From Escherichia coli (GTDB taxonomy: Bacteria; Pseudomonadota; Gammaproteobacteria; Enterobacterales; Enterobacteriaceae): a stretch of 1,411 nt of DNA. This document shows, piece after piece, positions 1 through 749 of this stretch (positions are counted from its first letter, which is position 1; each line of letters starts with the position of its first letter). The translations under genes and the position numbers were made by a program. Location of the stretch: the NCBI RefSeq assembly GCF_003334255.1, contig NZ_QOWU01000159.1; one strand, given 5' to 3'. Below the pieces are notes generated by a model. That model saw only the letters and a list, made by a program, of their open reading frames with translations. It was not told the DNA's origin and did not search any database.

Positions 1-749
1 ATGGTGATGCTGGTCATGCCGCCCGTTTCCTGTGAAAGGCGGTCAAGCGCTGCCCTCAGACGAACGTGCTCGTCTTCATCGAATGGTTTTCCGTAGGCGG
101 TAAAATTGTCCCGGCCACTGAATTGCAGGTAAGGGGGATCGCAGTACACGCAAAGCGTGTTGCCCATGCCGAACAGGTGACTGGCAGAGTTCAGCGTATC
201 CTTAAAATCTGCGTGGATAAGCAGCGTTCGGGTGCTGTTTGCCTTGTCTGCAAATGCGCGGATTTCACGCTCAGGGAAGTAGGGCTTGCGGTAGCAGCCG
301 AAAGGCACGTTAAAATCGCCTTTTCCGTTCACGCGGAACAAACCGTTAAAGCTGTGTCGGTTCAGGTACAAAAACATGGCGGCCAGTCGCAGTTCACGGC
401 GGTCGCTTATTCCCGTTCTGCTGTTCAGGAAGGCATGATTCTCTGCGTTAAAGGTTTCGCGAATGATGAGATAGTCACCCCTGTTGTTGTGGTTCAGGAA
501 CAGGGTTTTCGCCTCGTCGATCAGGCTGTCGGTGTTGTCCCTAGCTTGCCGGTAGAAATTAATCAGCGCACCATTGGAATCACCCAGGATGTAACGCTTG
601 TAACTGGTGTTCATGAATACCGATGCGCCGCCCACGAACGGCTCAACCAGACAGTCGGCTTCTGGCAGGTGCGCCTTCAGTGTGTTCATGATGCGGCTTT
701 TTCCGCCCACCCATTTCAGTGGCGTACCGGATAACAGTTCTTTGCTCAT
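1..749 (-). CDS. dam: DNA adenine (N6) methyltransferase, Dam family (alpha/D12 class); 3' end (C-terminus) truncated by the window edge
   Basis: Hand translation of the minus strand: ATG at 749..747, preceded by AGAGG (761..757) at 7-nt spacing and by an in-frame TAA (767..765), so this is the first possible start. The frame stays open to position 1 (249 codons, none of tta/cta/tca in phase on the plus strand). Protein begins MSKELLSGTPLKWVGGKSRIMNTLKAHLPEADCLVEPFVGGASVFMNTSYKRYILGD and is collinear with E. coli Dam blocks as I recall them: LKWAGGK; EPFVGAGSVF (SAM-binding FxGxG, here EPFVGGASVF at nt 615..644); FLYLNR..NGL.R.N..G.FNVPFG; VYCDPPY (catalytic DPPY at nt 129..140); NFTAY. Absent from the ORF track because no stop lies within the window. 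E. coli Dam is 278 aa, so roughly 30 residues probably lie beyond position 1. Confidence 0.93.
   Translation of the reverse strand, partial: MSKELLSGTPLKWVGGKSRIMNTLKAHLPEADCLVEPFVGGASVFMNTSYKRYILGDSNGALINFYRQARDNTDSLIDEAKTLFLNHNNRGDYLIIRETFNAENHAFLNSRTGISDRRELRLAAMFLYLNRHSFNGLFRVNGKGDFNVPFGCYRKPYFPEREIRAFADKANSTRTLLIHADFKDTLNSASHLFGMGNTLCVYCDPPYLQFSGRDNFTAYGKPFDEDEHVRLRAALDRLSQETGGMTSIT

Follow-up and report, generated by a model that had tools for sequence, protein, structure and literature searches.

The closest described relatives of the gene reported here are the Dam-family N6-adenine methyltransferases. The E. coli enzyme (EcoDam, PDB 2G1P) is encoded on the chromosome in the context damX-dam-rpe. 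Phage orphan Dams are common; examples are T4 Dam (1YFJ/1Q0S) and the enzymes of P1, VT-2 and HP1, all of them GATC adenine methyltransferases that fall in the same Pfam family. M.DpnII (DpnM, 2DPM) is a GATC-specific Dam-family enzyme which belongs to a restriction-modification (R-M) system. The D12 family also includes enzymes with targets other than GATC. [quoted passage not shown] P2 itself has no methylase (PMC3091744). Several isolated phages of the Peduoviridae, namely Enterobacter phage phiT5282H, Salmonella phages SW3 and SI7, and Klebsiella phage ST16-OXA48phi5.4, encode Dams of one and the same family. These proteins share a length class of approximately 317-327 aa and a C-terminal tail with four cysteines (Cys4), and their genes are found in the early phage region, between cox and A where these are annotated, with no endonuclease partner.

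The window analysed here, meaning the whole stretch of 1,411 nt, contains a gene which compares closely with this last group. It very probably encodes an orphan Dam-family (D12, alpha-class) N6-adenine methyltransferase that forms part of the early operon of an integrated P2-like temperate phage. The window holds the N-terminal 249 of the 326 codons of the gene (1..749, minus strand). The start codon ATG is at 749-747 and the left edge of the window cuts the gene. Translation from 749 to 1 gives 249 stop-free codons; for random codons the probability of such a run is (61/64)^249, or about 6e-6. The frame is missing from the ORF list because it is open at the window end, and the earlier note was right that the largest gene is invisible in the six-frame track. 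In the E. coli chromosome NZ_CP116067 the full gene occupies 4051620-4052600, which is 981 nt (326 codons), and is named 'DNA adenine methylase' in RefSeq (WP_016232593.1); the part in the window is 100% identical to this protein at the amino acid level. Since the full gene has 326 codons, 77 codons lie outside the window, considerably more than the 30 or so that were originally estimated. The 326-codon frame is intact in this near-identical reference copy. A Shine-Dalgarno-like sequence, AAAGAGG, is located 7 nt upstream of the ATG (757..763, minus strand), within the end of the preceding ORF. Comparison with two diverged E. coli copies gives a dN/dS of ~0.22 for dam, and the gene is under purifying selection.

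Two ORFs on the plus strand appear in the six-frame track, one of 222 aa (66-734) and one of 133 aa (607-1008). They run antisense to dam and the ParE-like ORF described below. Neither has a PHROG or NCBIfam family match; they are therefore regarded as shadow ORFs, and a real plus-strand gene was rejected. In a six-frame track both could pass for genes.

The sequence of the dam product marks it as a member of the Dam/D12 (alpha-class) family, as had been proposed. The D12-class N6-adenine methyltransferase profile PF02086 matches the 249-aa window fragment with an E value of 3.2e-48 and the full protein with 9.2e-52. The full protein scores 224.3 bits against the NCBIfam 'dam' family TIGR00571, for which the cut-off is 114.85 bits, and its full length matches phrog_56 ('DNA methyltransferase') with an E value of 3.9e-88. 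Among solved structures it matches E. coli Dam 2G1P (5e-52), DpnM (1.3e-34, across residues 11-289) and T4 Dam (4e-11). The comparison with E. coli and T4 Dam suggested previously thus finds both. The T4 match is much weaker and covers only residues 11-240; by this comparison the protein lies nearer to the bacterial line of Dams than to the T-even enzyme.

Identity to E. coli Dam is 41.6% over 274 aligned residues. Residues 11-290 are colinear with the E. coli enzyme, and the two share the order of the fold, the DPPY motif and the NFTAY block. The phage-type protein differs by an insertion ahead of the target-recognition hairpin, ~8-17 residues long according to the alignment used, and by an additional tail of ~35 residues with four cysteines. 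The catalytic motif IV, DPPY (aa 204-207; 129..140, minus strand), is invariant in all seven aligned homologues. The NFTAY block (aa 215-219) is at 93..107 on the same strand. Motif I, the SAM-binding glycine loop (aa 38-42; 624..638, minus strand), reads FVGGA where E. coli Dam has FVGAG; of the six phage and prophage homologues in the alignment, five have the same variant. The earlier note listed DPPY, NFTAY and FxGxG in the order of E. coli Dam. The first two and the order stand. A literal FxGxG search fails at the fifth position of FVGGA, and motif I is scored as present in variant form. The alpha-class order is kept: motif I (aa 38-42) precedes the recognition hairpin (134-153), which in turn precedes DPPY (204-207).

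A region of the chromosome of E. coli DETEC-S792 (NZ_CP116067) matches the window with 99.4% identity. Of 5,426 complete E. coli genomes, 30 have the locus, in every case on the chromosome. In DETEC-S792 dam forms part of the early operon in a prophage of ~37 kb, which is P2-like (Peduoviridae) and situated between ytfP and chpS; by annotated features the prophage spans 4020595-4057209. Its gene set and gene order are of the P2 type. The left part contains hok/gef, ogr, D, tail, baseplate, lysis, capsid, terminase and portal genes. After the portal gene follow SSB, the replication endonuclease (gpA), small early genes and then dam. Beyond the exonuclease are genes for DUF4754 and DUF4761 proteins, cox, a C-like repressor and a P2-type integrase. 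The early order is thus cox … DexA-like 3'-5' exonuclease, 75-aa ParE-like ORF, dam … replication endonuclease A.

The gene is not the housekeeping dam, since it scores 217.1 bits against the E. coli dam equivalog NF008152/PRK10904 (cut-off 441 bits) and its product is only ~42% identical to E. coli Dam. It resides in the prophage between ytfP and chpS and not in the damX-dam-rpe context of the chromosomal gene, as the earlier note had argued. A paralogue of chromosomal dam born by duplication was also considered and rejected. The further suggestion that the gene is borne on a mobile element is supported by its position in a P2-like prophage and by its ~50%-identical homologues in isolated Peduoviridae phages. 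In addition, a related copy in another strain (89% protein identity) has prpC at its side and adjoins an integrase whose length differs; the element is therefore mobile.

The prophage has an unannotated stretch of 1.1 kb with somewhat lower G+C (0.46) between the portal gene and SSB (L001 12454-13593), the interval in which accessory genes of P2 usually lie. The stretch contains an uncalled ORF (L001 13038-13544), the last 90 residues of which match phrog_1416 (function unknown) with an E value of 4e-50. The lysis region carries an accessory gene for a 656-aa DUF6645 protein (L001 2570-4540), which has no PADLOC match. A gene for a Hok/Gef-family toxin adjoins ogr at the prophage end (L003 6596-6736).

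The closest phage homologues of dam are classed as Peduoviridae. They are found at the protein level only: a megablast search of the window against the phage collection gave no nucleotide match, and blastn gave just short patches of 70-86% identity inside dam. The proteins of the isolated Peduoviridae phages are only 48-51% identical to the prophage Dam. The Klebsiella element CP052639 has the same order of exonuclease, 75-aa ORF, dam, further genes and A; in Salmonella phage SW3 dam lies between cox and A; and in Enterobacter phage phiT5282H it follows the integrase, in the equivalent early region. The neighbouring genes vary among relatives: the exonuclease is missing from some, and others have an added Dcm-type methyltransferase.

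Upstream of dam on the minus strand is a 75-aa ORF with a ParE-like domain (746..973; PF24732, E 1.2e-17; phrog_1525, E 5.5e-27). Its stop codon TGA (748-746) overlaps the ATG of dam (749-747) as ATGA, and it has a ribosome-binding site, GAGGTG, at 984-979. Its dN/dS is 0.30. A homologue with 65% identity occupies the same position in CP052639. In phiT5282H the ORF that lies upstream of dam, of 70 aa, has no similarity to it. Most of the E. coli records listed label the ORF 'ParE family toxin-like protein', and the rest 'hypothetical protein'. It has no NCBIfam or PADLOC match, and a PDB sequence search found no relative (the best match, E 1.3, is at the level of chance). No antitoxin-like neighbour is evident. 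The locus thus has a ParE-like ORF which appears translationally coupled to dam through ATGA and has no recognisable antitoxin.

Next comes the exonuclease gene, of which the window contains the C-terminal 142 of 193 codons (983..1411, minus strand; full gene L001 20983-21564). The product is a DEDDh 3'-5' exonuclease, Rv2179c-like and T4 DexA-like (PF16473, E 2.7e-51; phrog_255 'exonuclease', E 9e-60). Among solved structures its nearest relative is PDB 8KEN (E 2e-12), an exodeoxyribonuclease of 227 aa which we take to be T4 DexA. The dN/dS of the gene is 0.15-0.16. The earlier note, which called it DnaQ-like, correctly placed an exonuclease upstream of dam on the same strand; it is not the immediate neighbour, as the 75-aa ORF (973 to 746) comes between them. 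The gap from the exonuclease stop codon to the ATG of the 75-aa ORF is 9 nt. When the window and the 10 kb early region were scanned for promoters and terminators, the signals were as numerous as in shuffled controls, so no promoter can be assigned; an Rfam search of the window gave no match. Given the ATGA overlap, the 9-nt gap and the lack of promoter or terminator signal above chance, the exonuclease gene, the 75-aa ORF and dam are probably co-transcribed and co-translated.

GATC is the best prediction for the target of the enzyme, since the residues that E. coli Dam uses to read this sequence are conserved. In E. coli Dam, K9 and Y138 act at the first base pair, Y119 intercalates, N120, L122 and P134 act at the third base pair, and R124 contacts the guanine of the fourth; loss of R124 abolishes discrimination at the fourth base pair (PMC4417163). 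The equivalents of K9, Y119, N120, L122, R124, P134 and Y138 in the prophage protein are K12, F134, N135, L137, R139, P149 and Y153. Six of the seven are identical, and the seventh is a conservative change from Tyr to Phe (Y119 to F134); the closest of the aligned homologues have Phe there too. All but K12 are carried by the target-recognition beta-hairpin (aa 134-153; 291..350, minus strand), NRHSFNGLFRVNGKGDFNVPFG, which resembles NRYGYNGLCRYNLRGEFNVPFG of E. coli Dam. The ratio of observed to expected GATC sites is 0.81 in the prophage and 1.3-1.7 in the host flanks. There is no enrichment in the prophage, and this ratio was judged neutral evidence that is uninformative on specificity.

Three other readings of the locus were weighed. 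An active Dam-family enzyme might have a relaxed or different adenine target and not strictly GATC. The D12 family includes enzymes with targets other than GATC, and the equivalent of Arg137 of E. coli Dam is Cys here, in addition to the Phe at the Tyr119 position; the 217 bits scored against the E. coli dam equivalog also fall far short of the required 441. Relaxed specificity is known among phage methyltransferases, for example in that of Serratia phage OS31 (PMC7556043). Set against this are the identity of six GATC-contact residues, including the equivalent of R124, the conservative nature of the seventh change, and the similarity of the hairpin to that of the E. coli enzyme. A different or relaxed target is thus unlikely, though the least unlikely of the three. 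The prophage might also be defective and the gene a functionless relic in decay. In favour are the many defective prophages of E. coli, the redundancy of the gene with the Dam of the host, and the small number of complete genomes that carry it (the 30 noted above). However, the reference copy has an unbroken reading frame and no catalytic motif is lacking; the dN/dS values are low both for dam (0.22) and for its neighbours (0.15-0.30); the prophage around it has a complete set of P2-type genes; and homologues are found in isolated, viable Peduoviridae phages. Decay is accordingly the least credible of these readings.

Hardly more credible is the idea that the gene provides the methylase of a Type II R-M system whose endonuclease lies just beyond the window. 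The precedent is DpnM, a partner in such a system and one of the structural matches given above. PADLOC scores the methylase best as 'orphan methyltransferase' (252.7 bits) and nearly as well as 'Type II methyltransferase' (238.9 bits). P2-like phages with full R-M modules are known, such as Burkholderia phage KL3 (PMC3091744). The prophage context contradicts this idea, and a partner beyond the window was rejected. Downstream of dam are genes of 78, 72 and 120 aa (DUF4406, nucleoside 2-deoxyribosyltransferase-like), then small phage proteins up to gpA. The small genes between dam and gpA match only phage families of unknown or unrelated function, with no restriction match and no PADLOC defence match. 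Among the 57+18 annotated genes of the 37 kb prophage and its flanks, no restriction endonuclease is named as a partner. The portal-SSB stretch, which is the sole unannotated gap of more than 1 kb in the prophage, has no restriction or defence match and holds just the phrog_1416 ORF. Homologous phage genomes of 30-38 kb share the layout and have no endonuclease. DpnM differs from the prophage enzyme in this respect, as it belongs to an R-M system. The absence of a visible restriction partner, first remarked on from the window, therefore extends to the genes 3' of dam. Since there is no endonuclease or defence gene near dam and no partner endonuclease annotated in the prophage, the prophage Dam is, to judge from its gene context, an orphan methyltransferase.

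The Cys4 tail, CDACGRHGGGYCPDCGPV..DATY, comprises aa 292-326 of the full Dam (L001 19769-19880) and lies outside the window. E. coli Dam lacks it, and a Pfam search of the full protein found no domain over it. Its pattern, CxxC-x8-CxxC, is kept in all aligned P2-like phage Dams; one of them has a 7-residue spacer. The tail recurs almost verbatim in the middle of RecE (exonuclease VIII) of Rac-like phages (tblastn, E ~5e-5, 71% identity over 24 aa). It also matches RecE of phage Rac-SA53 (L008 3001-3126) and positions 526-552 of NCBIfam PRK09709, and is found in phrog_20376, ahead of a DEDDh exonuclease domain. A literature search found no paper characterising the prophage Dam protein or the Cys4 tail. 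One speculative reading, which we consider doubtful, is that the tail is an undescribed small zinc-ribbon module which tethers the phage methylase, the recombination exonuclease and the DEDDh exonuclease to one partner or DNA structure. If that were so, tethering by the zinc ribbon would explain phage Dam acting preferentially on replicating phage DNA. The shared Cys4 module is the only feature of the locus that might be new.

An orphan phage methyltransferase thus remains the preferred reading, and a role can be proposed for it. The enzyme would transfer a methyl group from S-adenosylmethionine to the N6 position of the adenine in GATC. In phage P2 the early operon starts at cox and is repressed in lysogens. 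By analogy, dam would be transcribed together with the exonuclease gene and the 75-aa ORF, probably from an early promoter beside cox. Because the early operon is laid out as in P2, the product would be made mainly during lytic growth and repressed in the lysogen. Its most likely use is the full GATC methylation of fast-replicating phage DNA. Packaged genomes would then be protected in the next host, also where that host has no Dam of its own, from methylation-sensitive restriction enzymes that cut at GATC, and methylated phage DNA would not be left as an under-methylated substrate for MutH. Salmonella phage SW3 (L004 4599-5522) and Klebsiella element CP052639 (L005 5525-6541) have a gene for a DNA cytosine methyltransferase as well as dam, just upstream of gpA; the E. 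coli prophage has none. The presence of a cytosine methyltransferase in the same operon of relatives fits a role in self-protection. E. coli already has a Dam of its own, and the benefit of a phage Dam in a Dam-positive E. coli is not obvious. The displaced second glycine of motif I (FVGGA) and the replacement of the intercalating Tyr119 by Phe are counted against the explanation as a whole.

This is an ordinary gene of a well-known kind: the exact protein is already named in RefSeq and its family is represented in PHROGs. The main value of the analysis is a correct annotation, in which a prophage orphan Dam replaces the 222-aa antisense shadow ORF that was listed while the real gene was concealed by an artefact of the window end. 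The gene also belongs to a question which concerns the class as a whole, namely why a phage should encode Dam when its host already does. The locus does not make that question newly testable; its tidy operon and conserved Cys4 tail are possible handles on it.
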